Positions 34,568 to 60,000 of a stretch of 64,000 nucleotides of DNA are shown here, piece after piece. Every line of letters starts with the position of its first letter. Position 1 is the first letter of the stretch. The notes under the pieces were generated by a model. It had not been told where the DNA came from, ran no database searches, and saw nothing but the letters and a program-made list of their open reading frames with translations. The position numbers were made by a program, and so were the translations under genes. This DNA is from a virus, in IMG/VR virus record IMGVR_UViG_3300036770_003016, one strand, 5' to 3'.

Positions 34568-35272
34568 TTAGTCCCACAGATTTCTGTAGTACTTACCAAA
34601 CAGTCTTGTACCGTTATTGATTCGTTCATTGTACTTTTCGTAACCTTCACGATCAAACTCTGCGGTGTGATTTGGTCCCCTCTCAAAAGTATAAAGAGTT
34701 GGTTTACCATTCTCATCCCACTCGCAAGGTACAGACTTCATATCATGTACACCAGTATGGAATTGTGCATCATAGTCATCGTTACATAACTGTTCAAATG
34801 CCCAAATCATTTCATCAAGAACCCATTCCCATCGTGCATGAATATCACAATGACTTTCTTTTGGTTCGTCTTGCTTATAGAAATCAAAAGTTTCTTGTGC
34901 ATCATATTCTTCATGTGTGATGCAACGAAGATGTTCTGGTACATCCTCTAAGTCTACCATAGGAGAACCATGCTTAGTCTTTTTCAACTGCTTGAGCATT
35001 GGCAGGATGATTGGAGACAATGTTGTATCCATGTTCCAAGTGTCGTACTTGTCAATCTTGACATACTCAATTCTTGGATGAACAAAATCAAGAAACTTCT
35101 GAAACCCAACACAAACAGGATTCAGAAGATTGACAAACTTCTCGTACTTGTTTTTTGGATCGTCATCAAGATTATAGATGATGTCTTTGTCTTTTTCCCA
35201 AAAACAAATTTTGGTCAAAATTGTATATGGAGACAACCAATGATTACGATATTTGCTGATGTATACTTTCAC
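34568..35272 (-). CDS. Conserved T4-like hypothetical protein
   Basis: IDKYDTWNMDTTL, WEWVLDEMIWAFEQ, LFGKYYRNLWD. Confidence 0.65.
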   Translation of the reverse strand: MKVYISKYRNHWLSPYTILTKICFWEKDKDIIYNLDDDPKNKYEKFVNLLNPVCVGFQKFLDFVHPRIEYVKIDKYDTWNMDTTLSPIILPMLKQLKKTKHGSPMVDLEDVPEHLRCITHEEYDAQETFDFYKQDEPKESHCDIHARWEWVLDEMIWAFEQLCNDDYDAQFHTGVHDMKSVPCEWDENGKPTLYTFERGPNHTAEFDREGYEKYNERINNGTRLFGKYYRNLWD

Positions 35273-35285
35273 AATGTTTTCCCAT

Positions 35286-35628
35286 AAAAAAATAAGTGCC
35301 GACTGATTGGGTGATAAGGTACAGTCGGCGAAACCTCAGCTCAGCATGCCTTAGGCAGCTAAAGCGAAACGCTCATCGTTTGCGTTTATTTTATTTACTT
35401 TTTACGACTCTCTGTGTCGGATCGTCCATCTTTCTACTCTTTGCCCTGTCGAAACCAGGTCAGGCCCATTAGGAAGCATACTAAATCTGCACTTTTTCAG
35501 TCGGGGCTATCTGCTATTATGCAGCCTACCGGCAGTCCTTGACCGATCTTCATAGTATGCTTTCTGGTGGACCTGGAGGGAATCGAACCCTCGTCCAGAA
35601 CACCTTTCAATTAACTTCATACGATCAT
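35286..35628 (-). ncRNA. ssrA: Circularly permuted (two-piece) tmRNA
   Basis: Acceptor piece ending GGTTCGATTCCCTCCAGGTCCACCA (3' end 35565) precedes the coding piece starting GGGCCTGACCTGGTTTCGACAGGG (35467); G3:U70 pair; tag ANDERFALAA* at 35383-35351. Confidence 0.92.
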
Positions 35629-35634
35629 ATTACT

Positions 35635-35663
35635 ACTATAACAGAAACTATTTATTTTGTCAA
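35635..35663 (-). promoter_or_regulatory. Sigma70-type promoter for tmRNA
   Basis: TTGACA-N17-TATAGT immediately upstream of the acceptor piece. Confidence 0.75.
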
Positions 35664-48603: not shown

Positions 48604-48680
48604 TGGTGCGCCCGGAGGGACTTGAACCCCCAACCAACGGATTATGAGTCCGCTGCTCTGACCAATTGAGCTACAGGCGC
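48604..48680 (-). tRNA. tRNA-Ile2/Met (CAT)
   Basis: Cloverleaf GCGCCTG...GCGGA-CTCATAA-TCCGT...CCA; Ile2 versus Met identity inferred only. Confidence 0.85.
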
Positions 48681-48690
48681 AATGTTTGTA

Positions 48691-49164
48691 TTATACAACT
48701 ATTTTAAGAAGACTTTCAAGGTGTTTTTTGTCTATATCAAGGTACTTAATCACTTCTTCTGGTTTAACGAAAGCATCTTCATTATAATCACACTGTTCCC
48801 ACCACCAAAATTGTTGCTCACGAAGATATTTTCTATCTTTCAATAGATTTATGTTTTCTGGATGTCCAAAAATTGTTGGGTCAGATTGACCAAAAAGAAC
48901 TATACCTGGTTTACCAATATCCCAAGCTAAATGTTGAATAAAACTATCTACAGATATCCAAGTTCTGCAATTTTCAATGAGTGCAGTCAGTTCCAACACA
49001 GTCAAGTTTTTTCTAAAATCATCAACCAATTGTTCTTCACCTTCAATACCAACTTGAACAATTGGTTCTTTGATTAGAGATATTAGTTCAGGCCACCAAG
49101 GATAATTTTTGGGATTATTCTTATCGTTTCTTAATTTTTTAGCATAAGGTGATATCACAATCAT
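48691..49164 (-). CDS. GT9 (heptosyltransferase-like) C-terminal domain protein
   Basis: KNYPWW, ISVDSFIQHLA, GIVLFGQSDP..FG. Confidence 0.7.
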   Translation of the reverse strand: MIVISPYAKKLRNDKNNPKNYPWWPELISLIKEPIVQVGIEGEEQLVDDFRKNLTVLELTALIENCRTWISVDSFIQHLAWDIGKPGIVLFGQSDPTIFGHPENINLLKDRKYLREQQFWWWEQCDYNEDAFVKPEEVIKYLDIDKKHLESLLKIVV

Positions 49165-50138
49165 TTTTCTACTCCATACAATTTTCTAAATGCATTTTCG
49201 AGACTATCTTTCCATTTCCATTGATCCATTTTAGTATAAACATTAAACGAACTAATATCACCAAATCTTTGAATTGCCTCAGCAATACTTTTGCCAGGAA
49301 TTATTTCTGGATAACAAGAAAACACTATTGGATTCTGAATGTCTTTCAATACTCGTTTGAATACGATATGATCACCTAAACCACAATCTAAAACAACTGG
49401 TGTATATTCTTTTAATCCTAAAATATTGTTAAATATTTGTTCATCGTGAGCAAACATCTCTTGAGTACTAGTTCTAATACCACCTTGACGATTCTTTAGA
49501 TGCCAAACTACAGCATCAGGTACAACCAATAGTCTATATCCCTTTTGCCTAAATGCATAAGTGAATAATGTCTCTTCTCTGTGTGCAGCTCTAGACAATG
49601 CCAAATTGTAATCACATATTCCAGCACGATACAGAAATGAACAATGTAAATGATCGACCTCTCTCACAACTCTAACATGATCCCATTGCATGTTGGGTTC
49701 ATGCCAAATATCTTCTATTTTTCCTGTACAAGCAATTCGTATAGTTTCAAATGGAGGTGTTAAAACTGAACCACCAACAGCACCAACATCATCATGATTT
49801 TGGATATAAGAATACAAATTCTTTAAAGTATTAGGCTCTGCAACAGTATCGTCATCCAACCTCCAAACTAAATCATAACCCATTTTATTTGCAATTTGAT
49901 GATTAAAGTGTTGGCCTTTTTTAAGACCAAACAATACTTGCCAACCAATATTTTTTTCTTCCAAAATAGAAAACAAATACGCATAATGTTGCATCTCTCG
50001 CATATCTTTTGGTTCATCATTGTCATCAAAAATGACCAAATGATCTGGTAATTTTTCTTGTGCAATTACAGATTGTATTGCCATAGGTAAAGTAGTATCA
50101 TACCTTCCTCTAGTTGATATGGAACAAAGTACTCTCAT
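49161..50138 (-). CDS. GT2 glycosyltransferase with GT9-like C-terminal segment
   Basis: FDDND, RLDDD, HREET; GLGDHIVF near the C-terminus. Confidence 0.7.
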   Translation of the reverse strand: MRVLCSISTRGRYDTTLPMAIQSVIAQEKLPDHLVIFDDNDEPKDMREMQHYAYLFSILEEKNIGWQVLFGLKKGQHFNHQIANKMGYDLVWRLDDDTVAEPNTLKNLYSYIQNHDDVGAVGGSVLTPPFETIRIACTGKIEDIWHEPNMQWDHVRVVREVDHLHCSFLYRAGICDYNLALSRAAHREETLFTYAFRQKGYRLLVVPDAVVWHLKNRQGGIRTSTQEMFAHDEQIFNNILGLKEYTPVVLDCGLGDHIVFKRVLKDIQNPIVFSCYPEIIPGKSIAEAIQRFGDISSFNVYTKMDQWKWKDSLENAFRKLYGVEK

Positions 50139-52072
50139 TTAAAAGCCTCTACATTTAAAAATAAGTGAACAGTATGTGGCATAACATATTTTGAAGCTGG
50201 ATCTTTTCTAGTAATATTTTTAAAACCTGCCCATCCTAAATTAGTTCTTAATTGTTGTTCAGTAAAAAGAAATTTGTGTGTTTGTCCTGGAACCCAGGGG
50301 TGTGCAAAAAAGTGCCCATATAGTAAAACTCTCCAATCTTCAATATTCATTACTGGAGAACCTTCAACAAATGACCGACAGGTCTCTAAAAAGTCTGGAG
50401 TTTCCAACCATAATCTTCCACCTGGCTTCAATACACGAAACCATTCTTCCAATACATCTTTAATCTCAAAGAAGTGAAAATGCTCAATGATATGAAATGC
50501 CTTTATTTCATCTACAGAGTTATCGTCATATGGCAACTTTTGCACATCAAATCTAGCATCACAAACTGCATCATCGGGTGCATACAAGTCTATGTTTATA
50601 TATCCTTCAGTATAATCATGACCACATGCTAGATGTAATTTGAGTGAATCTAGCATTTCGTGTTTATTCTTCAATAAAGGCATTTTAGACTTACCAATTG
50701 AAGCCTGAGAAGTGTTTCTATGCAAATAAAAGATAGTTTGAATTTTCTTATCAACAAATTTATAATTACTTTTCCATAGACGAATCCACATATCCCAATC
50801 TTCTACACTATCGAGATCACTATCGAATTTGTTTTCGACAAAACATTCTTTCTTAGCTACAACTGAAGACATCCATATAAAATTCCTATACAATAACTGT
50901 TTACCAATAAACTCTTTTGGAACTGGTATATTCACAATGTCCATTTTGGAAAATTTTTCATCAATGACAGTTGGCTTAGTGTAAACTATATCATATTGAT
51001 TTAAATATATCAAACTAGTTTCTAAGTGGTTTTCTATCCAAGAATCATCAGAATCCAAAAATGCAATGTACTGACAACCATCTTTTATAGCTTGTTCAAT
51101 TAAAAAATTTCTTCCATAACTTTGACCTTTATTTTGGTCCCCTCTGTAGTACTTGATAGTGTCATCGTTTTCTACTAAAAAGGAAATAGCTTCTTGTAGG
51201 TTATCGGTAGAATTGTCATCATAAATGTAATGAGTCACATTTTTATATGATTGTATTTTGACAGAGTTGATACATCTAAAAATATGAGATATGTCATTGT
51301 AAATAGGAGTAATTACAGCAATAGTATTCTCACGCATAATATTTTTCTTCCAATATGGATTATGTTTCAATGCTACTCTAAAGGAATTCTTTAAAAAATT
51401 GGAACTCCAATTTTGCACTAAACTTTGATCATGGACTGTACCTTCAGCTAAATGGTATATTGGATATTGTCCTGTGTGAAAGCTTTTAGTAGTTGGAAGT
51501 TTTGGTATACATTCATCAATCGTAAATCCATTTTCTTCCGCTAAGATACAAAACTCAATATCTTCACAAGAACCAACCCCATACTCTTCATTGAGTAATC
51601 CAATTTTATCGAAAACTTTTCTGTCTATCATCACACAGAAAAATATAGCAAAGTTTCTCACCACAACATTAGAATATTCTTTAACAACACAAGATATACC
51701 ACAATTTACGTTTTTTGTAAATGGATCATGCAGAATATTTAACCATAAATCTTTAGATTGATCAAGTAATATGCAATCATTGTTTAATAACACAACTTTA
51801 TCACATGTTGTTAATTTAATACCTTCATTTGTTGCTTTTGGATATCCTAAAGGACTGTCATGCCAAAAATATTTGAAATTATCTTTTAAATTATTTTTAA
51901 TGAAATGTTCTTTGAGTTCCTCAAGATATTGTTTAGTGTTATCTGTGCATCCGTTGGCTGATATTACCAACTCAATATCTTCAATAGTCGAATACTTCAA
52001 AATTGATTCAACACACGGCTTTAATAAATCATCACAATGATTATAAGTTGGTATAACTATAGAATATTTCAT
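50135..52072 (-). CDS. Tandem GT2-GT2-SAM methyltransferase fusion
   Basis: SIVIPTYN..LLNND; ITPIYN..FLDSDD..EDWD; LHLACG..HIIEH..RVLKPGG. Confidence 0.8.
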   Translation of the reverse strand: MKYSIVIPTYNHCDDLLKPCVESILKYSTIEDIELVISANGCTDNTKQYLEELKEHFIKNNLKDNFKYFWHDSPLGYPKATNEGIKLTTCDKVVLLNNDCILLDQSKDLWLNILHDPFTKNVNCGISCVVKEYSNVVVRNFAIFFCVMIDRKVFDKIGLLNEEYGVGSCEDIEFCILAEENGFTIDECIPKLPTTKSFHTGQYPIYHLAEGTVHDQSLVQNWSSNFLKNSFRVALKHNPYWKKNIMRENTIAVITPIYNDISHIFRCINSVKIQSYKNVTHYIYDDNSTDNLQEAISFLVENDDTIKYYRGDQNKGQSYGRNFLIEQAIKDGCQYIAFLDSDDSWIENHLETSLIYLNQYDIVYTKPTVIDEKFSKMDIVNIPVPKEFIGKQLLYRNFIWMSSVVAKKECFVENKFDSDLDSVEDWDMWIRLWKSNYKFVDKKIQTIFYLHRNTSQASIGKSKMPLLKNKHEMLDSLKLHLACGHDYTEGYINIDLYAPDDAVCDARFDVQKLPYDDNSVDEIKAFHIIEHFHFFEIKDVLEEWFRVLKPGGRLWLETPDFLETCRSFVEGSPVMNIEDWRVLLYGHFFAHPWVPGQTHKFLFTEQQLRTNLGWAGFKNITRKDPASKYVMPHTVHLFLNVEAFK

Positions 52073-53280
52073 TTGATTGCTTCCACCCTAAAATTAGGTC
52101 CATCATGGCCAAGAATTTGTTCTTGCATAAACTTTATTTCTCTAAAACCAGCACCAGCTAAATGGTCATACACTATTTCTGGATACCATCCAAAAAGATG
52201 TGGGCTAGTGATCTCTTCAGGATCACCTGAATGTCTAGTATTTACTGTACCATAGATAGAAGTCAACAATCTGTAACGCACCATCTTATCATTGGTGTTT
52301 ATGAATTGCCTACATAATTCTTCAATATTTGGCATCTCCATAATTAATTTGCCATTAGGTTTTAATACTCTTTTCCACTCAACAAGTGTTTTCATTATTT
52401 TAAATGGACTGATATGTTCAAAAACATGTGATGCTAAAATTTCATCTGCATAATTGTCACTGAAATCTAACTTTGTTATATCCATTTTGAGATCAGCTCT
52501 TTCATCATACAAGTCAATATTCAAGTAATTGTCATAAGGAAGAGGACCAGAACCTAAATTTAATTTTGCATTTTTGAGATGACGATCATAAATTATAATT
52601 TTATTACGATTCAACACATCTTTGTAAGTTGGCACTTTTGTTAGAAAAGTCTGACTAGATTTGTGAAAGATTGGAACTGTACCATTATATCCAGTTTTTG
52701 TATTTTCCCAATTTCCAGCTTGTTTTAATTCAAACCCACTATTTAAAGCTCGAAGACAATAATCTATGTCTTCACAATTGCCTGGAGAAAAAACTTCATC
52801 TAGTAGACCAATTTTATCAATGACTTTTCTATCTATCATCACACAAAAGAAAAAAAGTAAATCTTTCTTCAAGTGCTTATCAGTCAACAGCAAAGGACCA
52901 GTAATGCCAACTCTTTCATTTTCTAAAAATGGTTGTTCTAACATCTTTAACCAATAATCTTTGATTTGATCTAGAAGTACACAATCATTATTCAATAAAA
53001 TAATTTTTTCGCCAGTCGAGATTTTTATCCCTTCATTTATAGCTTTAGGATAACCAATTGCTTCATTGAACCAAACAGTTTTAAAGTTATTTGGCAAATT
53101 TCTTTCTGTGAAGAATGTTTTTAAGTCTTGTAGAAATAATTCAGTATTATCTTTGCATCCATTAGCAGAAATAATAAGTTCTATGTTTTCTACAGATGTA
53201 TGACGAATAATAGACTCAACACATGGAATTAAAAATTCATTACAATAGTCATATGTTGGAATAATTATGGAATATTTCAA
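52069..53280 (-). CDS. GT2-SAM methyltransferase fusion
   Basis: SIIIPTY, LLNND, EDIDYC; LNLGSG, SHVFEH, RVLKPNG. Confidence 0.8.
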   Translation of the reverse strand: MKYSIIIPTYDYCNEFLIPCVESIIRHTSVENIELIISANGCKDNTELFLQDLKTFFTERNLPNNFKTVWFNEAIGYPKAINEGIKISTGEKIILLNNDCVLLDQIKDYWLKMLEQPFLENERVGITGPLLLTDKHLKKDLLFFFCVMIDRKVIDKIGLLDEVFSPGNCEDIDYCLRALNSGFELKQAGNWENTKTGYNGTVPIFHKSSQTFLTKVPTYKDVLNRNKIIIYDRHLKNAKLNLGSGPLPYDNYLNIDLYDERADLKMDITKLDFSDNYADEILASHVFEHISPFKIMKTLVEWKRVLKPNGKLIMEMPNIEELCRQFINTNDKMVRYRLLTSIYGTVNTRHSGDPEEITSPHLFGWYPEIVYDHLAGAGFREIKFMQEQILGHDGPNFRVEAIK

Positions 53281-54038
53281 AGTTTCTCCAAAGTCAAATT
53301 AGTTTTTGTCATATCAGCACAAGTGTATTTCTGATATGAACATTTTAAATTTTCAGGCATTTCAATTTCTCGTATATCATTTGTGTATAGTTTAGCAACA
53401 TCCAAAAAACTCATAGTGGTGCCAGTGCCAAGATTCCATATACCAGATTCTTGTACATCTAGAAATTTTTCATGGAAGTCTACAATTTGATCAACATGAA
53501 TAAAGTCTCTTTTATAATTTTCACTATCTTTAAATACTTTCACATAGCCTAACTTTTCATGCTGAATCTTAAATTGTGTAAAAGGACTTGCTTGGGAACC
53601 TTTGTGTTCTTCATTAGAACCGTACACATTAAAATAACGAAAAATTTGTGTGGTATGCTTTGATGGATTATTTTTTACATAACGCTCAAACATATATTTA
53701 GACCACGAATAAGGTGTTCTAGGATCAACAGGTGATTCTTCAGTAAACTCAGTATTTAACCCATAGACAGATGCTGAGCTTGCAAACTGAAATTTTTTAC
53801 CAGATAACTTACATAGATCATAAAGTGCTACTGAGAAATCGTAATTTTGTCTGAATATCTTGTCTACATCTTTTTCAGTAGTAGAACTAATACCACCAAC
53901 ATGAATTACCCATTCAACCTTAGTGATATCGGGAAATTCTCTTCCCCATTCATAAGTAACAACATCATGCTTGTCTTTAAGTCTGTTTAATAGGTGTGAT
54001 CCAATAAAACCTTTGTGTCCTGTAATTAGTATTTTCAT
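53277..54038 (-). CDS. hldD: ADP-L-glycero-D-manno-heptose 6-epimerase-like SDR
   Basis: ITGHKGFIG, SSTTE, ASSASVYG, YSWSK, RYFNVYG..E.HKG, YQKYT.AD. Confidence 0.8.
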   Translation of the reverse strand: MKILITGHKGFIGSHLLNRLKDKHDVVTYEWGREFPDITKVEWVIHVGGISSTTEKDVDKIFRQNYDFSVALYDLCKLSGKKFQFASSASVYGLNTEFTEESPVDPRTPYSWSKYMFERYVKNNPSKHTTQIFRYFNVYGSNEEHKGSQASPFTQFKIQHEKLGYVKVFKDSENYKRDFIHVDQIVDFHEKFLDVQESGIWNLGTGTTMSFLDVAKLYTNDIREIEMPENLKCSYQKYTCADMTKTNLTLEKL

Positions 54039-54391
54039 TTCTGTGAATCTCCTGGCAAAACTCTATAGTTATCTTCAACGGAATCAGGAGTAGACACTTC
54101 TAGAATTGTTCCTTCTTTATAACAAACGACTTGATGTGGAAAAAGTGGATCGTTATGCCATACATCACCTTTCTGTAGAACTTTTTCTTCAACCTTTGCG
54201 TTCTCAGTATTGATCCAACGAACAACAAATTCACCACTCATCACATACCAAGTCTCAATCTTTTCTTTATGAAAATGCATTGAGAATTTAGCAGCTTTCT
54301 TGAAATGCATAAACTTACTACAATAGTGGTCGTTAGTAACCCAAATTTCTTCTAATCCCCAACCTTTTTCTACTTTACCTTCTAATCGCAT
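54035..54391 (-). CDS. Cupin-fold sugar isomerase-like protein
   Basis: KGWG.E.IW, FSMHFH..K.ETW, EVSTPD..ED.YR..PGDSQ. Confidence 0.75.
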   Translation of the reverse strand: MRLEGKVEKGWGLEEIWVTNDHYCSKFMHFKKAAKFSMHFHKEKIETWYVMSGEFVVRWINTENAKVEEKVLQKGDVWHNDPLFPHQVVCYKEGTILEVSTPDSVEDNYRVLPGDSQK

Positions 54392-55140
54392 ATCTCATCC
54401 AATGTCGGTGCATACACACCCATATGTTGAACAGTAATTGATGATGCTTTGTTTGCAAACTCTATTGCAGAACCTACATGATTTGTTAGCAGATAGTTAT
54501 ATACCAATGCTGCAAGAAAAGTATCACCTGCACCACATACATCAGACACTTCTACAGGCTTTGCACTAAAGAATTTGTTTTTATATGTAGCACCTTTGTC
54601 ACCAAGAGTAACAATCAAGTCAGAACAATATGACTTTGCCTGTTGATATTCTCTGCTGTTGATTTTAACAAAACAGCCTTCGAATCTAGAAAGTTCTGTC
54701 TTTTTAGTATCAATGAATATTGGGCAAGTTTGTTCTTGTCTTGTCTGTTCGATAAGTCCATAAGAAACACATCCCTTGTTGTAGTCAGAAAACACAATGG
54801 CGTCATATTTTTTATCTTTCAAGTTTAAAGTAAGTTCTTTTGATTCAACATCTTCATCTATGCGTAAAAGGTGCTGATTACTTTTGAGATCAATGAGTCT
54901 TGTTTTCTTAGAAAGTGCGCCAACTACCATATCGACATCACAATTCAATGCCAATAGATTATTGCCAACATTAGAAGCCATACCTAATTTTAATTCTTGT
55001 TTTTCTGGAACAAAAATTGGTACTGGAGCTTCAGGACTTAGTTTAGTGACATTACCGTACTGATAGATATCAATACAAGTATCACCGACTAATAATATCT
55101 TGAATTTTTTTTGTTGTGGAATATTCTTCAATTCGATCAA
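54382..55140 (-). CDS. Heptose-7-phosphate kinase (HldE/RfaE domain I, PfkB family)
   Basis: LSPEAPVP, SDYNKG, DVCGAGDTFLA. Confidence 0.85.
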   Translation of the reverse strand: MIELKNIPQQKKFKILLVGDTCIDIYQYGNVTKLSPEAPVPIFVPEKQELKLGMASNVGNNLLALNCDVDMVVGALSKKTRLIDLKSNQHLLRIDEDVESKELTLNLKDKKYDAIVFSDYNKGCVSYGLIEQTRQEQTCPIFIDTKKTELSRFEGCFVKINSREYQQAKSYCSDLIVTLGDKGATYKNKFFSAKPVEVSDVCGAGDTFLAALVYNYLLTNHVGSAIEFANKASSITVQHMGVYAPTLDEICD

Positions 55141-55474
55141 AATAAATCACCTGTTTACAATATTTTTCACCTGTAATACTCTTACCTCTATAATCAGAAC
55201 CTTTCACCATTATATCACATTCTTTGATGAAGTCAATCAATTCTTCTTTACTATCAAACAATCTTACCTCATCTACAGCCTTGAGGTTTTCCAACATCAT
55301 TTTTCTTTCATACTGATTATTTATTGGTCTTTCAGAACCCTTTAGTTCTTTCACTCGACGATCCGTATCGATGCAAACCAAAAGAAAATCTCCCAAACTT
55401 CTCGCAAAGTTTAGGAGCTCTAAATGACCAACATGTAATATATCAAATGTACCGTTTACAATAATTTTCTTCAT
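55082..55474 (-). CDS. Heptose-1-phosphate nucleotidyltransferase (HldE/RfaE domain II)
   Basis: NGTFDILHVGH, LKGSERPIN, VKGSDY, YSTT. Confidence 0.85.
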   Translation of the reverse strand: MKKIIVNGTFDILHVGHLELLNFARSLGDFLLVCIDTDRRVKELKGSERPINNQYERKMMLENLKAVDEVRLFDSKEELIDFIKECDIMVKGSDYRGKSITGEKYCKQVIYFDRIEEYSTTKKIQDIISR

Positions 55475-55485
55475 ATAAGTATTTA

Positions 55486-55560
55486 TGGCACCACTGAGAG
55501 GAATCGAACCCCTATTCTAGGTTTAGAAGACCCATGTCCTATCCGTTGAACGACAGTGGT
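55486..55560 (-). tRNA. tRNA-Arg (TCT)
   Basis: Anticodon loop CTTCTAA; encoded CCA. Confidence 0.88.
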
Positions 55561-55565
55561 ATATT

Positions 55566-55648
55566 TGGTGCGAGTGGAGGGATTCGAACCCTCAATCCAG
55601 AGGCGGCAAATTTTAAGTCTGCTGTGTATACCGTTCCACCACACTCGC
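55566..55648 (-). tRNA. tRNA-Leu (TAA)
   Basis: Loop CTTAAAA; long variable arm. Confidence 0.9.
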
Positions 55649-55693
55649 AATAAAAACATTATAACATAAATTTGTGTTGTTTACAGGTAATAT

Positions 55694-55770
55694 TGGTGCC
55701 TCAGGAGAGATTCGAACTCTCAGAATCTTGCTTCTAAGGCAAGCATGTTTACCAATTTCATCACCGAGGC
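55694..55770 (-). tRNA. tRNA-Leu (TAG), short variable loop
   Basis: CTTGC-CTTAGAA-GCAAG; 77 nt. Confidence 0.85.
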
Positions 55771-55772
55771 AT

Positions 55773-55848
55773 TGGTGCGACCTAGAGGAATCGAACCTCT
55801 TTCCATGGCTCTTCAGGCCACTGCTATGACCACATCAGCTAAAGTCGC
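55773..55848 (-). tRNA. tRNA-Phe (GAA)
   Basis: Loop CTGAAGA. Confidence 0.88.
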
Positions 55849-55849
55849 A

Positions 55850-55924
55850 TGGTGCACCGTGAAGGTTACGCTCCCTCTACCCTCTGCTTGTAAGGCAGAC
55901 GCTCTACTATTGAGCTAACGATGC
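55850..55924 (-). tRNA. tRNA-Val (TAC)
   Basis: Loop CTTACAA; atypical T-loop AGCGTAA. Confidence 0.82.
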
Positions 55925-55925
55925 G

Positions 55926-56001
55926 TGGGGTGTCCTATGAGGATCGAACTCATACTCTCTCGTTCACAGCAAGAAGTGCAGACCACTACACTAAGGACAC
56001 C
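55926..56001 (-). tRNA. tRNA-His (GTG)
   Basis: Loop CTGTGAA; G-1:C73. Confidence 0.88.
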
Positions 56002-56010
56002 AAGAGCATT

Positions 56011-56084
56011 TGGAGCGGCTAAAGAGAATCGAACTCTTAACTTCTGCTTGGAAGGCAGTGGTTTTACCATTAAACTACAGCCGC
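56011..56084 (-). tRNA. tRNA-Gly (TCC)
   Basis: Loop CTTCCAA; U73. Confidence 0.9.
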
Positions 56085-56089
56085 TTATT

Positions 56090-56398
56090 TTAATCCCAAG
56101 GTGGATAACCGCCTTGAATACAAATCATTTTCATCGGACCAGAATAATCTCTCCATTCAATTACTTTACCATTCTTATCAAGAGGCCTTAGATCAGGTAG
56201 CGCAAATGTCGTTCTACCATCACCGCCATACTTTGTACCAATAATGGAAAAGAGTGCTTCGTTTCCTTTTACTTGCATGATTTGACCACTACAAGGTGCC
56301 CAAGTACGAACACCTCTAGTTCCAGCAAACTCTGTGATTGATCCGAGCATATCACCTTCTACTGACATGCCAAGTTTTTGTAACATTTTCTTAATCAT
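56090..56398 (-). CDS. Stand-alone tail-collar domain protein
   Basis: W.PCSGQ......ALFSIIGTKYGGDGRTTFALPDLR...ICIQG.YP. Confidence 0.8.
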   Translation of the reverse strand: MIKKMLQKLGMSVEGDMLGSITEFAGTRGVRTWAPCSGQIMQVKGNEALFSIIGTKYGGDGRTTFALPDLRPLDKNGKVIEWRDYSGPMKMICIQGGYPPWD

Positions 56399-56407
56399 AT
56401 TTTCTCC

Positions 56408-56875
56408 TTAAGCAGCTAAACTTTTGTAACGATCTGCAGCGTATGATGCCGCAAACGCTCTTGGTTTTACCATAGGAATTACATTACAAGTTCCACGAAT
56501 ATAACCAATTGCTTCATTGATCACGCAATTTGAACCATGCATTTCACTTGGGTTGATATCAAGGTGGACTTCTACATCACGACCTTCCAGAACATCAGCC
56601 AACTTTAAATACATTTCAGATACCTTGTATACTTCATTCATCAAACGGTATCTCGGACGATCTTCTTTTTGGTCATAGTCTCTTTCACGAACAACTTCAC
56701 CAAAAAGTTTGCAACCGTGTTTTCCATCTTTGTGAACAACTATAGCAATTATATAGTCAGCATGCCACACTTCATTCACTCTTAATCTTTCAGAATCACA
56801 TCCAAGATAAATTTTTGTTTCTGGCGATTGTCTTGAGATGTAATCTTTCACTTCTTGTAAATTTATCTTGAACAT
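56408..56875 (-). CDS. RNase H-like YkuK (DUF458) family protein
   Basis: IYLGCDS, RLMNEV, EVHLDIN, KP.AFAASYAAD. Confidence 0.8.
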   Translation of the reverse strand: MFKINLQEVKDYISRQSPETKIYLGCDSERLRVNEVWHADYIIAIVVHKDGKHGCKLFGEVVRERDYDQKEDRPRYRLMNEVYKVSEMYLKLADVLEGRDVEVHLDINPSEMHGSNCVINEAIGYIRGTCNVIPMVKPRAFAASYAADRYKSLAA

Positions 56876-56889
56876 GATATCTCCTTAAT

Positions 56890-56963
56890 TGGCCTCGGTG
56901 GACAGAATCGAACTGCCATGACTGGTTTTGGAGACCAGCGTAATGCCTTTATACGACACCGAG
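56890..56963 (-). tRNA. tRNA-Trp (CCA)
   Basis: Loop CTCCAAA. Confidence 0.88.
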
Positions 56964-56980
56964 ATTAAAACTACTTATAA

Positions 56981-57054
56981 TGGTCCTTCCTGATGGTTAC
57001 GATCCACCGTCTAGCGGTTATCAACCGCTTGCTCTGCCATTGAGCTAAGGAAGG
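56981..57054 (-). tRNA. tRNA-Ile (GAT)
   Basis: Loop TTGATAA; atypical T-loop ATCGTAA. Confidence 0.82.
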
Positions 57055-57056
57055 AT

Positions 57057-57131
57057 TGGCACCACCTAAAGGAATCAAACCCTTTCTACAATGTCCGTAG
57101 CATTGCGTGCTATTCAGTACACTAAGGTGGT
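57057..57131 (-). tRNA. tRNA-Arg (ACG)
   Basis: Loop CTACGGA. Confidence 0.85.
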
Positions 57132-57138
57132 ATAATTA

Positions 57139-57215
57139 TGGTCTGGGTAGAGAGGATCGAACTCCCGACCTCCTGCTCCCAAAGCAGGCGCACTACCTGG
57201 CTGTGCTATACCCAG
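57139..57215 (-). tRNA. tRNA-Pro (TGG)
   Basis: Loop TTTGGGA. Confidence 0.9.
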
Positions 57216-57224
57216 ACGAAACTT

Positions 57225-57299
57225 TGGTGCCCCCGGAGAGATTTGAACTCCCGACCGCTCGCTTACAAGGCGAGAACTCTACCACTGAGCTACAGGGGC
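57225..57299 (-). tRNA. tRNA-Thr (TGT)
   Basis: Loop CTTGTAA. Confidence 0.9.
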
Positions 57300-57304
57300 A
57301 AAAC

Positions 57305-57381
57305 TGGTGGCGATGGAAGGATTCGAGCCTTCGATCTTTTCCGTATGAAGGAACTGCATTTGACCGCTATGCTACATCGCC
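57305..57381 (-). tRNA. tRNA-Met (CAT), elongator-like
   Basis: Loop TTCATAC; GGCG start. Confidence 0.82.
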
Positions 57382-57551
57382 ATTAGTGAGAGTACTATCA
57401 TATCTGTTTAAGGACACTTTTCAGTCCTCTCTGCATCCCTTAGACTCACCACAAGTCTCGCACCAACGGCGTGGATTCATGCAAAGATGAGTACTACCAC
57501 GATAGTCTGGCTGCTGGTTAGGCACTTCGTTCTACAGACTCTCACTAATGG
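57380..57551 (-). ncRNA. Inverted-repeat-bounded structured RNA cassette
   Basis: Perfect 14-bp IR CCATTAGTGAGAGT...ACTCTCACTAATGG linking tRNA-Asn CCA to tRNA-Met 5' end. Confidence 0.55.
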
Positions 57552-57623
57552 CTCCAGAGGTAGGGATCGAACCTACGACACACGGATTAACAGTCCGCTG
57601 ATCTACCGCTGATCTACTCTGGA
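57549..57623 (-). tRNA. tRNA-Asn (GTT)
   Basis: Loop CTGTTAA. Confidence 0.9.
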
Positions 57624-57624
57624 A

Positions 57625-57818
57625 CAGGTGCTTCCTCTCTGCGGTGGTAATTATAGTGTCTCCAGTTTCGAACCCTTCAACGACACCTTCCACCCACTTC
57701 ACGACCAAAGAGAATTCTCGCATTGCCAGCGCCATTTGCTCCAAATGGTAAGGTCCTGTGGGTATCACACCACTTCTCGACATGCGGACCACACTAGCCG
57801 TTGATTAGACGGCACGTT
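57625..57818 (-). ncRNA. Unidentified GC-rich structured RNA(s)
   Basis: Non-coding, GC-rich, several hairpins, between tRNA-fMet and tRNA-Asn. Confidence 0.45.
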
Positions 57819-57892
57819 TGGTAGCGGGTAGCCGAATTGCACGACTAACTGTAGCTTATGAGACTACCGAGATACTATTTCTCTAACCCGCA
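57819..57892 (-). tRNA. tRNA-fMet-like (CAT)
   Basis: 1:72 mismatch (T:T), GCGGG acceptor, loop CTCATAA; lacks the three G:C anticodon pairs. Confidence 0.7.
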
Positions 57893-57897
57893 AAACT

Positions 57898-57972
57898 TGG
57901 CGGTCCCAACGAGATTCGAACTCGTTCCTGCGCCGTGACAGGGCGCTATACTCGCCGATATACTATGGAACC
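57898..57972 (-). tRNA. tRNA-Asp (GTC)
   Basis: Loop CTGTCAC. Confidence 0.9.
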
Positions 57973-57979
57973 ATAAAAC

Positions 57980-58054
57980 TGGTAGGCGCACGGAGAATCG
58001 AACTCCGGTCAATAGATTAAAAGTCTACTGCTTTAACCCCTAAGCTATACGCCC
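57980..58054 (-). tRNA. tRNA-Lys (TTT)
   Basis: Loop CTTTTAA. Confidence 0.9.
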
Positions 58055-58060
58055 AAAATT

Positions 58061-58147
58061 TGGTGCTATGTCCTACTTGCAATAGGACTCTAGTCGCAGT
58101 TTGAGAGGCATCGTTCCTAGGATCGAGAGGCACATTCTGCCACAGCG
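58061..58147 (-). ncRNA. tRNA-like RNA without recognisable anticodon arm
   Basis: GCTGTG/CATAGC-A-CCA end, GGCA-GAATG-TGCC arm, TCCTA-TTGCAAG-TAGGA T-like arm. Confidence 0.5.
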
Positions 58148-58167
58148 TAAAGCGACGCTGTGCATCT

Positions 58168-58243
58168 TGGTGGAGAGTATCGGGTTCGAACCGATGACCT
58201 CCTGCTTGCAAAGCAGGCGTTCTCCCAACTGAACTAACTCCCC
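58168..58243 (-). tRNA. tRNA-Ala (TGC)
   Basis: Loop TTTGCAA; G3:U70. Confidence 0.92.
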
Positions 58244-58301
58244 ATATTGAAACACACTATGCCACGCTCTGAACCTGGACTCTTAGTAATGTGTTCGAAT
58301 A

Positions 58302-58465
58302 TGGTGTTGCTTGTTCCCGTCCGTCGGGCCAATGTGTCGGGCTTTATTGCTCTCTACCTATTCAGCCATTCCCATCGTCGAGAGTCAATGGGAAACATCT
58401 TGACACACCATCTAACTTAGATTACTTTGCCATTAGGCGTTTCATCTACTAGCAGTCAGCAAACC
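58302..58465 (-). ncRNA. ~164-nt CCA-terminated structured RNA
   Basis: 5' GGTTTGCT pairs with 3' AGCAACACCA; bounded by IR cassettes. Confidence 0.45.
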
Positions 58466-58568
58466 ATATTGAAGCACACTGACAGTATCGAAACTGCCCA
58501 CACCGCCGAAAGACGATGCTAGGTCCACTCCCAAGGCCGGCGCCATCTAGCCTTAGTGTGCTTCAATA

Positions 58569-58719
58569 TGGTTGCTGGTTACGACTCCAGCACAATCGTA
58601 TCGTCATTGTCGCTCGAATCACGCCTGTGTCTTCGTCAAAGGCTCGCCGCCTTTATACACGCTTCAGGTATTCGTGTTCTGGGATCAGCCCGAGGACTTT
58701 TCGGTCCCCACTTACTCCC
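58569..58719 (-). ncRNA. ~150-nt CCA-terminated structured RNA
   Basis: GGGGACCGAAAAGTCCTC hairpin; 3' TGCTGG-AGTCGTAA-CCAGCA-ACCA minihelix. Confidence 0.45.
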
Positions 58720-58821
58720 ATATTCAAGCACACTCGTTGTAGACTTTCTGTTAGTATCCCTTACGGGTCCCCGCTGGCAGCCCCAATGGCTGGGCCGGGC
58801 GACTAAGAATGTGCTTGAATA

Positions 58822-58907
58822 TGGTGGGCTTCGTTGGAATCGAACCAACGCTTTCTCTTTTCGATTGCTCTACTCAGAGTCGTGCCCCCAGCAAACACCA
58901 GAAGCCC
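58822..58907 (-). ncRNA. tRNA-like RNA with expanded anticodon loop
   Basis: Perfect GGGCTTC/GAAGCCC acceptor, D arm, canonical GTTCGATTC T arm, 17-nt anticodon-position loop. Confidence 0.7.
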
Positions 58908-59000
58908 AAATAAACTTTACCATATTGAAGCGCACTTAGACTACTACCCTACTCGAGCATAGCCTTTCAGAGCTTCACCCAAATGCACTTCAGTATGGTA

Positions 59001-59114
59001 TGGTAGCAGGAGTGGTTGCGATCCACTGCAGAGCACCGGGATTAAGGCCTTGTAGTTGGCTTGCTCTAGAGTCACCAATCTCTCAGAGGACCAATGACCG
59101 GCTTCATACCTGCC
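59001..59114 (-). ncRNA. tRNA-like RNA with two enlarged arms
   Basis: GGCAGG/CCTGCT-A-CCA acceptor; AGTGG-ATCGCAA-CCACT T arm; long internal hairpins. Confidence 0.55.
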
Positions 59115-59209
59115 CTACTACCATATTGAAACACACTGGTCGAAGCAGATACGGAAGACACCCGCTGCTGTTTCCGATGCCTAGTCGGACTCGTCAATGC
59201 GCTTCAATA

Positions 59210-59297
59210 TGGTGGGTGGTGATGGTAACGCTCCACGAGGCAACTTCCGATCTTATTATGCCGACGGTTTTACAGACCGCTGACCGGGGCACCACCC
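59210..59297 (-). tRNA. Non-canonical D-armless tRNA-Tyr (GTA)
   Basis: GGGTGGTG/CACCACCC-A-CCA; GCGGT-CTGTAAA-ACCGT; long variable arm; only a 9-nt connector in place of the D arm. Confidence 0.65.
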
Positions 59298-59302
59298 GTA
59301 TT

Positions 59303-59379
59303 TGGTACACCGTAGGGGATTTGAACCCCTGATCTTCTCCGTGAAAGGGAGATGTCCTAGGCCGCTAGACGAACGGTGC
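59303..59379 (-). tRNA. tRNA-Glu (TTC)
   Basis: Loop CTTTCAC. Confidence 0.9.
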
Positions 59380-59381
59380 AA

Positions 59382-59407
59382 GTAAACAACACAAATTTTT
59401 AAAGAAC
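59382..59407 (-). promoter_or_regulatory. rrn-like boxA antitermination element, copy 2
   Basis: GTTCTTTAAAAATTTGTGTTGTTTAC just downstream of the internal promoter. Confidence 0.65.
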
Positions 59408-59429
59408 AATTCATCACATCATGTAGATC

Positions 59430-59482
59430 ATTATACACTAAACCTACGAATTGTCAACTACTACTGTTGTAAAAAAACAACA
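59430..59482 (-). promoter_or_regulatory. Internal tRNA-operon promoter with upstream palindrome
   Basis: TTGACA-N16-TATAAT; TGTTG-N8-CAACA at 59465-59482. Confidence 0.78.
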
Positions 59483-59485
59483 GAG

Positions 59486-59563
59486 TGGAAGTACGGGTCG
59501 GATTCGAACCGACGAATCAAGAGTTTTGCAGGCTCCGCCATTAGACCGCTCTGGTACCGTACT
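59486..59563 (-). tRNA. tRNA-Cys (GCA)
   Basis: Loop CTGCAAA; U73. Confidence 0.88.
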
Positions 59564-59568
59564 ATAAC

Positions 59569-59658
59569 TGGTGGAGAATCAGGGAGTCGAACCCTGTGAC
59601 CCTATTTCTAGAATCTACGGATTAGCAATCCGCTGCATTACCATCCTGCCCATTCTCC
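59569..59658 (-). tRNA. tRNA-Ser (GCT)
   Basis: Loop TTGCTAA; long variable arm. Confidence 0.9.
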
Positions 59659-59662
59659 GAAT

Positions 59663-59754
59663 TGGTGGAAGCGGTGAGATTCGAACTCACGGGCCACTTT
59701 CATGACCGACAGTTTTCAAGACTGTTGCAATAAACCGGACTCTGCCACACTTCC
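59663..59754 (-). tRNA. tRNA-Ser (TGA)
   Basis: Loop CTTGAAA; long variable arm. Confidence 0.9.
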
Positions 59755-59825
59755 ATATGGAAACACATTGCCAAGTAGAGCCATGGTATCTTGTGCGGGA
59801 GCAACCCCTACAATGTGCTTTCATA

Positions 59826-59920
59826 TGGTCCTTGGACTAGGATTCGAACCTAGATCATCCCCTCATCTAGAGGCATCGCCGAGGTATAAGCTCGGAGTTT
59901 TACCATTAAACTATCCAAGG
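59826..59920 (-). tRNA. tRNA with TAT (Ile) anticodon and long variable arm
   Basis: CCGAG-CTTATAC-CTCGG; ~25-nt variable region; 95 nt. Confidence 0.75.
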
Positions 59921-59922
59921 AT

Positions 59923-60000
59923 TGGTGGGGGATACTGGATTCGAACCAGTGAATGTCGGATTCAAAATCCGATGCCTTAGACCAGCTTGGCTAATCCCCT
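59923..60000 (-). tRNA. tRNA-Gln (TTG)
   Basis: Loop TTTTGAA; weak 1:72 pair. Confidence 0.88.

Follow-up and report, generated by a model that had tools for sequence, protein, structure and literature searches.

Does the phage that carries this locus lack a tyrosine tRNA, or does it encode one in a form that tRNA gene finders fail to recognize? The 64,000-nucleotide stretch of viral DNA analysed here (the window) contains a long run of tRNA genes. A sequence-only reading had singled out positions 59210-59297 as a D-armless tRNA-Tyr, and had noted that the other tRNAs of the window cover 19 amino acids with tyrosine alone missing. The count is reproduced by ARAGORN, which finds 25 tRNAs for 19 amino acids in the window, plus a permuted tmRNA. 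The element itself is passed over by this program in standard, relaxed-threshold and mitochondrial modes alike, and the Rfam tRNA model RF00005 gives no match to it even at E = 10.

The phage and its tRNA cluster

The IMG/VR record behind the window is a linear sequence of 120,163 bp with a G+C content of 34% and a completeness of ~68% (CheckV), and the window is the minus strand of this record. The source is a freshwater T4-like phage, whose gp23 major capsid protein has ~66% identity to the gp23 proteins of cyanomyoviruses and of the Methylophilales phage Melnitz. Genes for a tail assembly chaperone and for a gp38-type tail-fibre protein are present in the record as well. The tRNA genes called by ARAGORN are arranged as follows:

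55486-60000, minus strand: tRNA cluster, 24 tRNAs
48604-48680: 25th tRNA, outside the cluster

The element lies inside this tRNA operon, 5 nt downstream of a tRNA-Glu gene and on the same strand. Examination of the rest of the genome, which the sequence-only reading had advised, gave no ARAGORN call of a canonical tRNA-Tyr across the 120-kb record; because the record is only ~68% complete, such a gene could still lie elsewhere in the same phage. The available ~68% of the phage genome likewise contains neither a TyrRS-family gene (PF00579) nor a gene for a CCA-adding enzyme (PF01743).

The phage-borne tmRNA gene is of the permuted, two-piece type and specifies the tag peptide ANDERFALAA (35260-35657, minus strand). 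Within the tRNA cluster, a 155-aa ORF (56408-56875, minus strand) matches the ribonuclease H-like Pfam family PF04308 (2.7e-18) and may encode an RNA-processing enzyme; it is adjoined by a 102-aa ORF with a tail-collar domain. Directly downstream of the cluster is a run of sugar-nucleotide and glycan genes (49161-55474, minus strand) which includes glycosyltransferases (three of family 2, two fused to methyltransferase domains), an epimerase/dehydratase, a cupin, a PfkB-type kinase and a cytidylyltransferase-like protein.

The genes of the cluster are in part separated by six spacer hairpins on the minus strand (58242-58304, 58464-58571, 58718-58824, 58920-58998, 59121-59212 and 59753-59828). 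These share conserved 15-nt arms, CCAUAUUGAAGCRCA / UGYGCUUCAAUAUGG, for which there are 12 exact matches and 1 stray match, with 1.9 expected by chance, and they have G-U pairs on the tRNA strand only. Each hairpin spans the interval from the upstream RNA's CCA to the 5' end of the RNA that follows, and the paired arms recur in >70 fetched viral contigs. Between the hairpins the minus strand also has three G+C-rich elements, 120-160 nt in length (59120-58999, 58717-58572 and 58463-58305). Each is ACCA-ended and some have a T-arm-like hairpin, and an anticodon arm is present in none; for one of them (about 59034-59100) blastn gives a relative in a Manatee Spring Caudoviricetes record. The tRNA-Ile (UAU) gene (59826-59920, minus strand, 95 nt) has an extra arm that is unusually long for an isoleucine tRNA and is followed by one of the conserved hairpins.

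The cluster contains one other candidate for the missing tRNA. A tRNA-like gene at 58822-58907 (minus strand) has normal acceptor, D and T arms and scores 31.9 bits with Rfam, and ARAGORN calls it tRNA-Tyr(gta) at relaxed threshold only. We rejected it as a tyrosine tRNA: the call contains two stem mismatches, position 33 is A, the anticodon loop in the Rfam alignment is 17 nt long, and blastn finds no homologue in 230 fetched loci.

Architecture of the 88-nt RNA

The element is an 88-nt RNA read from the minus strand (59297-59210). All the parts that the sequence-only reading had described (acceptor stem, A73-CCA, connector, GTA anticodon arm, V arm and T stem) are present on this strand at the positions it gave. 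From 5' to 3' the RNA is composed of:

59290..59297, minus strand: acceptor stem, 5' strand, nt 1-8, GGGUGGUG, pairs with 59214-59221
59288..59289, minus strand: linker CC, nt 9-10, at the place of positions 8-9
59282..59287, minus strand: P helix, 5' strand, nt 11-16, CCGGUC, D-arm replacement, partner 59247-59252
59281, minus strand: A, last connector nucleotide
59264..59280, minus strand: anticodon arm GCGGU/CUGUAAA/ACCGU with 5-bp stem, anticodon GUA at 59271-59273
59259..59262, minus strand: V helix, 5' strand, nt 36-39, GGCA, pairs with 59239-59242
59247..59252, minus strand: P helix, 3' strand, nt 46-51, GAUCGG, within the variable-arm loop, partner 59282-59287
59243..59246, minus strand: AAGU, nt 52-55, directly after the P 3' strand
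59239..59242, minus strand: V helix, 3' strand, nt 56-59, UGCC
59222..59236, minus strand: T arm, 4-bp stem GUGG/CCAU, loop AGCGUUA
59214-59221, minus strand: acceptor stem, 3' strand, CACCACCC
59213, minus strand: discriminator A (A73)
59210-59212, minus strand: encoded CCA

The acceptor and T arms together total 12 bp, split 8/4 as had been read. The sequence rules out a 7/5 split, since a fifth T pair would set C opposite C. The eighth acceptor pair (G8-C) is conserved among relatives, being G-C in 22 acceptor variants, A-U in 1 and A.C in 1. The connector between the acceptor and anticodon stems (59289-59281) is about 9-10 nt long and consists of CC, CCGGUC and A. There is no D hairpin in the element or at this place in any homologue. 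On the 3' side of the anticodon arm the order is C, GGCA, UAAUAA, GAUCGG, AAGU, UGCC, UC and then the T arm, such that the V helix begins within the span of the P helix and ends beyond it.

Homologues are essentially confined to uncultured phages

Relatives were sought by scanning IMG/VR for the 15-nt T-arm word, which returned at least 117 loci; among the matches listed are at least 75 full-length GUA homologues, representing 41 distinct sequences. A covariance model built from these 41 sequences recovered a second subfamily of 6 more distinct sequences, giving a homologue set of at least 47 distinct sequences, all from uncultured viral contigs. The second subfamily has the same architecture as the first, but its T loop is the canonical UUCRAUU, its linker is UU where the other 41 homologues have CC, and UGGY replaces AAGU. 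The contigs range from a few kb to >350 kb in length, and the adjacent tRNA genes vary by contig.

No member of the family was found by blastn in the collection of isolate phage genomes searched, where matches are limited to the anticodon arms of annotated tRNA-Tyr genes. Among 185,579 prokaryote species genomes, the main-subfamily motif (anticodon loop plus T-arm word) is matched once, on a contig of 24 kb that belongs to a metagenome-assembled Crocinitomicaceae genome; the 8 kb around this match contain 11 tRNA genes in a phage-like array. The family is thus essentially confined to uncultured phages. Compared with the window, contigs from three freshwater metatranscriptome runs yield only short tRNA pieces of relatives, among them, in one contig, 39 nt that belong to the 3' part of a relative of the pseudoknotted gene; these have no bearing on expression either way.

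Covariation of two crossing helices

Alignments made with MAFFT or the covariance model misplace the P 3' strand by at least one column where the loop length differs. Pairs were therefore counted by parsing each of the 47 sequences from its fixed ends (anchored parse), and the pair-counting tool was confined to a gap-free subset of 12 distinct sequences.

All five helices are kept with compensatory changes across the 47 distinct homologues. The pairing of the connector with the variable loop (CCGGTC/GATCGG, 6 bp) had been proposed from the window alone, with covariation among homologues named as the check. It holds: the P helix is paired at 6/6 positions in 47/47 homologues and occurs in 20 distinct combinations, with 3-5 pair types at each of the inner four positions. 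Swapping the strands between variants reduces the mean to 4.1/6 pairs and leaves 6.6% fully paired, and shuffling the middle region yields a perfect partner in 2.7% of trials. The V helix is found in every sequence with a length of 3-5 bp, and no fewer than nine complementary forms of it occur (GGCA/UGCC, ACUC/GAGU, ACCU/AGGU, ACCU/GGGU, CCU/AGG, CCC/GGG, GUC/GAC, UGUCC/GGACA and UGCC/GGCA). The acceptor stem has 24 distinct variants, of which 22 have all 8 bp paired; its pairs 3-6 covary and G1-C72 is invariant. All 8 variants of the anticodon stem are fully paired, and the T arm is invariant across the first subfamily. In the gap-free subset (n=12), 100% of cells are paired and both sides change in 8/11 pairs, or 5/6 for the P helix alone. 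None of 500 shuffles is as good, and sliding the partners by 1-3 columns lowers the paired cells to 26-58%.

Since the V and P helices cross and both covary, the pseudoknot is, on this comparative evidence, real. Nested thermodynamic folding returns a different minimum-energy structure (z = -1.5), which is uninformative because a pseudoknot cannot be represented in such a calculation.

These data also bear on whether the element is a decaying tRNA-Tyr pseudogene from which the D arm was deleted, as its rejection by gene finders could suggest. A normal D arm at this place in relatives, which the sequence-only reading had named as the sign of such a history, is seen in 0 of the 47 homologues. 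The 47 variants occur in many phage lineages, with compensatory changes in every helix and invariant functional loops, and cannot be one recent clone because they include 20 P-helix types and 24 acceptor types. We therefore consider decay a scarcely credible explanation.

A candidate tRNA elbow

The four nucleotides that always directly follow the P 3' strand are correlated with the T loop, AAGU occurring with AGCGUUA in 41 variants and UGGY with UUCRAUU in 6. We tested the corresponding elbow rule on 1,583 distinct cloverleaf tRNAs from the same fetched arrays. Cloverleaf tRNAs with G55 in the T loop have AG instead of GG in the D loop in 17/18 cases, spread over ten amino-acid species. With U55, the D loop has GG in 1,541/1,563 cases and AG in the other 22. 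The association of A18 with G55 and of G18 with U55 has a Fisher p of about 1e-28. Because the element follows this rule, its A53-G54 resemble positions 18-19, and AAGU probably stands in for D-loop positions 17-20 and contacts the T loop. The pattern indicates a tRNA elbow in the pseudoknotted RNA, a feature that we infer from cloverleaf tRNAs and from only two states within the family itself.

The description of the RNA as D-armless is accordingly correct in that the D hairpin is missing, but the RNA does not appear to be simply armless. It would be better termed rewired, because the P helix replaces the D stem and the putative D-loop nucleotides come after the P helix, where AAGU is predicted to act as the D loop.

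T loops with G55 occur elsewhere in phage tRNAs in several versions, including AGCGUAA, AGCGUUA and UGCAAUU. Within the window the alternative elbow is found in a tRNA-Val (55850-55924; T loop AGCGUAA, D loop AAUAGUA) and a tRNA-Met (57819-57892). Around the T-arm match, seven of the fetched loci (L137, L154, L155, L160, L179, L207 and L217) carry another tRNA of non-canonical type, in this case with the anticodon CAU. The D region of these tRNAs can be read as an AAGU tetraloop on a 4-bp stem, their anticodon stem appears lengthened and their T arm is likewise GUGG-AGCGUUA-CCAU. At least two of these genes are missed by ARAGORN, which lists no tRNA-Met with such a T loop.

Tyrosine identity and replacement of the canonical tRNA

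Bacterial TyrRS recognizes its tRNA by A73, the anticodon and the long extra arm and does not read the D arm; its identity elements are A73, G1-C72, G34, U35 and this extra arm. What RNase P, the CCA-adding enzyme and EF-Tu read is the acceptor/T arm, which the element has in intact form. The presence of G1:C72, A73, GUA and a long V arm, pointed out in the sequence-only reading, extends to the homologues, in which A73, G1-C72, G34, U35 and the long extra arm are all invariant or structurally conserved. The anticodon loop CUGUAAA, which provides U33, the GUA anticodon, purine 37 and the A36-A37-A38 context, is identical in 47/47 homologues, as are A73 and the encoded CCA. In isolate phages, genes annotated as tRNA-Tyr give blastn matches to the anticodon arm.

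The distribution of the gene across phage tRNA arrays is the strongest functional evidence and indicates that the pseudoknotted gene fills the tyrosine slot. Amongst arrays with at least 18 ARAGORN tRNAs, a canonical tRNA-Tyr is present in 0/32 that have the pseudoknotted gene and in 15/16 that do not, and amongst arrays with at least 8 ARAGORN tRNAs it is present in 2/64 and 27/43 respectively (Fisher p = 4e-12), counts that come from related contigs and do not represent independent events. For each of the remaining 19 amino acids, arrays with and without the pseudoknotted gene show similar rates of presence. In 79/81 sources the pseudoknotted gene is the sole GUA stem-loop with tRNA context, and arrays that apparently lack both types of tyrosine gene often contain a near-canonical tRNA-Tyr that ARAGORN misses. 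Mutual exclusivity of this kind across phage arrays supports, at the level of gene content, the earlier suggestion that the RNA is the phage's tyrosine tRNA. The two arrays of the 64 that have both genes are L138 and L209; the rewired copy in L209 has an A.A mismatch at acceptor pair 6, which might be a sign of decay there.

The same distribution is a poor match for the decoy that had been offered as an alternative, in which a tRNA-Tyr mimic would occupy a tRNA-Tyr-cutting host nuclease (or TyrRS) and so spare the host tRNA-Tyr pool. A decoy should accompany the canonical phage tRNA-Tyr, yet replacement is seen (0/32 vs 15/16 arrays). Nor would it need A73, G1-C72, the 12-bp acceptor/T arm, A36-A37-A38 or an elbow that obeys the rule, all of which are conserved. 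Defence nucleases directed at tRNA-Tyr do exist, namely Septu and the retron-Eco7 effector (PMC13096335, PMC11555353), the family is essentially phage-restricted, and the variable arm is its most remodelled part. Given its poor fit to the replacement pattern, we nevertheless regard a decoy or sponge as unlikely.

The invariant anticodon loop bears on a different possibility, that the element is a tRNA-shaped RNA that serves outside translation, for instance as a regulator, as a primer or as a signal for processing of the polycistronic tRNA transcript. The operon does contain other ACCA-ended tRNA-like RNAs that lack a normal anticodon arm and are split by the conserved hairpins, and the phage T4 tRNA cluster includes stable non-tRNA RNAs. 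Unlike these neighbours, however, the element has a standard 7-nt tyrosine anticodon loop, kept invariant on a covarying 5-bp stem, and it fills exactly the tyrosine gap of the arrays. A non-translational job is consequently an improbable account of it.

Proposed function

We think it likely that the RNA is the phage's own working tRNA-Tyr, with a rewired, non-cloverleaf core. From what was computed here, namely the fold, its conservation, the tyrosine identity elements and the replacement of canonical tRNA-Tyr, we infer a three-dimensional shape and a course of transcription, processing, charging and decoding. The 8-bp acceptor stem would stack on the 4-bp T stem to give the usual 12-bp arm, and the anticodon stem would be extended by the 6-bp P helix, formed by the 5' connector and a strand of the variable-arm loop, in place of the D stem. 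The variable-arm helix would cross the P helix to form the pseudoknot, and docking of AAGU on the T loop in the manner of D-loop G18-G19 would produce an L shape with the elbow retained. The RNA would be made as part of the transcript of the tRNA array, cut back to G1 and CCA, and charged by the host tyrosyl-tRNA synthetase through A73, G1-C72, G34/U35 and the extra arm, after which EF-Tu would deliver it to read UAY codons. Counting against a working tRNA-Tyr, we know of no bacterial translation system in which a tRNA lacking the D hairpin is used, and the geometry of the core may matter to both the ribosome and EF-Tu.

Why the core might have been rewired is suggested by tRNA-Tyr nucleases. 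Septu and the retron-Eco7 effector cut tRNA-Tyr within its variable loop, an additional phage tRNA-Tyr lifts the nuclease block, and the T5 tRNA-Tyr is reported to be resistant owing to its distinctive variable loop (PMC13096335, PMC11555353). Because the P helix ties up the variable-arm loop of the element, it is reasonable to hypothesize a counter-defence origin. The D region and variable arm of a working tRNA-Tyr would have been rebuilt to evade such nucleases (Septu, the retron-Eco7 effector or a phage shut-off nuclease), allowing the phage to keep translating once the host tRNA-Tyr is destroyed. This joint claim, of a working tRNA and of its design against nucleases, we advance only tentatively, as possible rather than probable. 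Were it true, the RNA would be the first known non-cloverleaf elongator tRNA in a bacterial translation system.

Comparison with known systems

The RNA has much in common with canonical class II tRNA-Tyr, as exemplified by E. coli tyrT/tyrU and the T5 and T6 genes. The two share the loop CUGUAAA, A73, G1-C72 and an encoded CCA, an overall size of about 85-88 nt, an extra arm that separates the anticodon arm from the T arm, an anticodon arm that is alignable by blastn, and an identical slot in phage tRNA arrays. Unlike the canonical molecule, the RNA has no D hairpin and has an 8/4 rather than a 7/5 acceptor/T arm. The loop of its extra arm pairs with the 5' connector in a pseudoknot, its putative elbow nucleotides come after the P helix and, in the main subfamily, its T loop is AGCGUUA.

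Tyrosine-accepting tRNA-like structures are found at the 3' ends of plant RNA viruses, for example brome mosaic virus. These are likewise pseudoknotted viral RNAs, which present tyrosine identity to a host synthetase. They are, however, the ends of genomes, carry the pseudoknot in their acceptor arm, and have no decoding loop and no translation role, whereas the phage RNA is a free-standing operon gene with a normal anticodon arm.

The (8/4) tRNA-Ser and tRNA-His species of alpha-proteobacterial phage tRNA clusters (Mukai et al., Nucleic Acids Res 2017, PMC5389517) and the allo-tRNAs described with them resemble the element in their 12-bp branch split 8/4, their long extra arm and their occurrence in phage tRNA clusters. 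They differ from it in keeping the D arm and the cloverleaf and in being serine, histidine or suppressor tRNAs, and that study reports no tyrosine species, pseudoknot or loss of the D hairpin (PMC5389517).

D-armless mitochondrial tRNAs (PMC7609411) also lack the D hairpin and have a short connector between the acceptor and anticodon stems. Theirs are shortened molecules with an unpaired connector, in contrast to the phage RNA, which is 88 nt long, has its connector in a covarying 6-bp helix and appears to keep the elbow nucleotides. The mitochondrial tRNAs are floppy, and those of nematodes are served by a specialised EF-Tu, whereas the phage RNA presumably uses ordinary bacterial translation. 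Neither phages nor pseudoknots come up in the 2020 review of non-canonical tRNAs (PMC7609411).

The phage tRNA-Tyr genes that counter Septu and retron-Eco7 (PMC11555353, PMC13096335) provide a further parallel, as they too are tyrosine tRNAs supplied by a phage, and the variable loop that is cut in tRNA-Tyr is the region remodelled here. Those tRNAs are, by contrast, cloverleaves that act by dosage or through small changes in the variable loop. Among the 10,006 viral RNA candidates catalogued in 2023 (PMC10690425), motif DNAVirus_1423 is described as sometimes overlapping ARAGORN tRNA-Tyr calls, and this motif may overlap the pseudoknotted tRNA-Tyr family.

The literature searched contains no account of a phage tRNA that lacks the D hairpin or has a pseudoknot in its core, and in none of the systems compared here does a covarying core pseudoknot occur together with loss of the D hairpin in an elongator tRNA of full length. 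To our knowledge, the cloverleaf is treated as universal for elongator tRNAs outside organelles. If the RNA is indeed a working tRNA-Tyr, bacterial synthetases, EF-Tu and ribosomes can accept another core topology, phage tRNA sets that seem short of tyrosine through a blind spot of the gene finders would in fact be complete, and the rewired core would offer a new scaffold for orthogonal tRNAs in genetic-code engineering.
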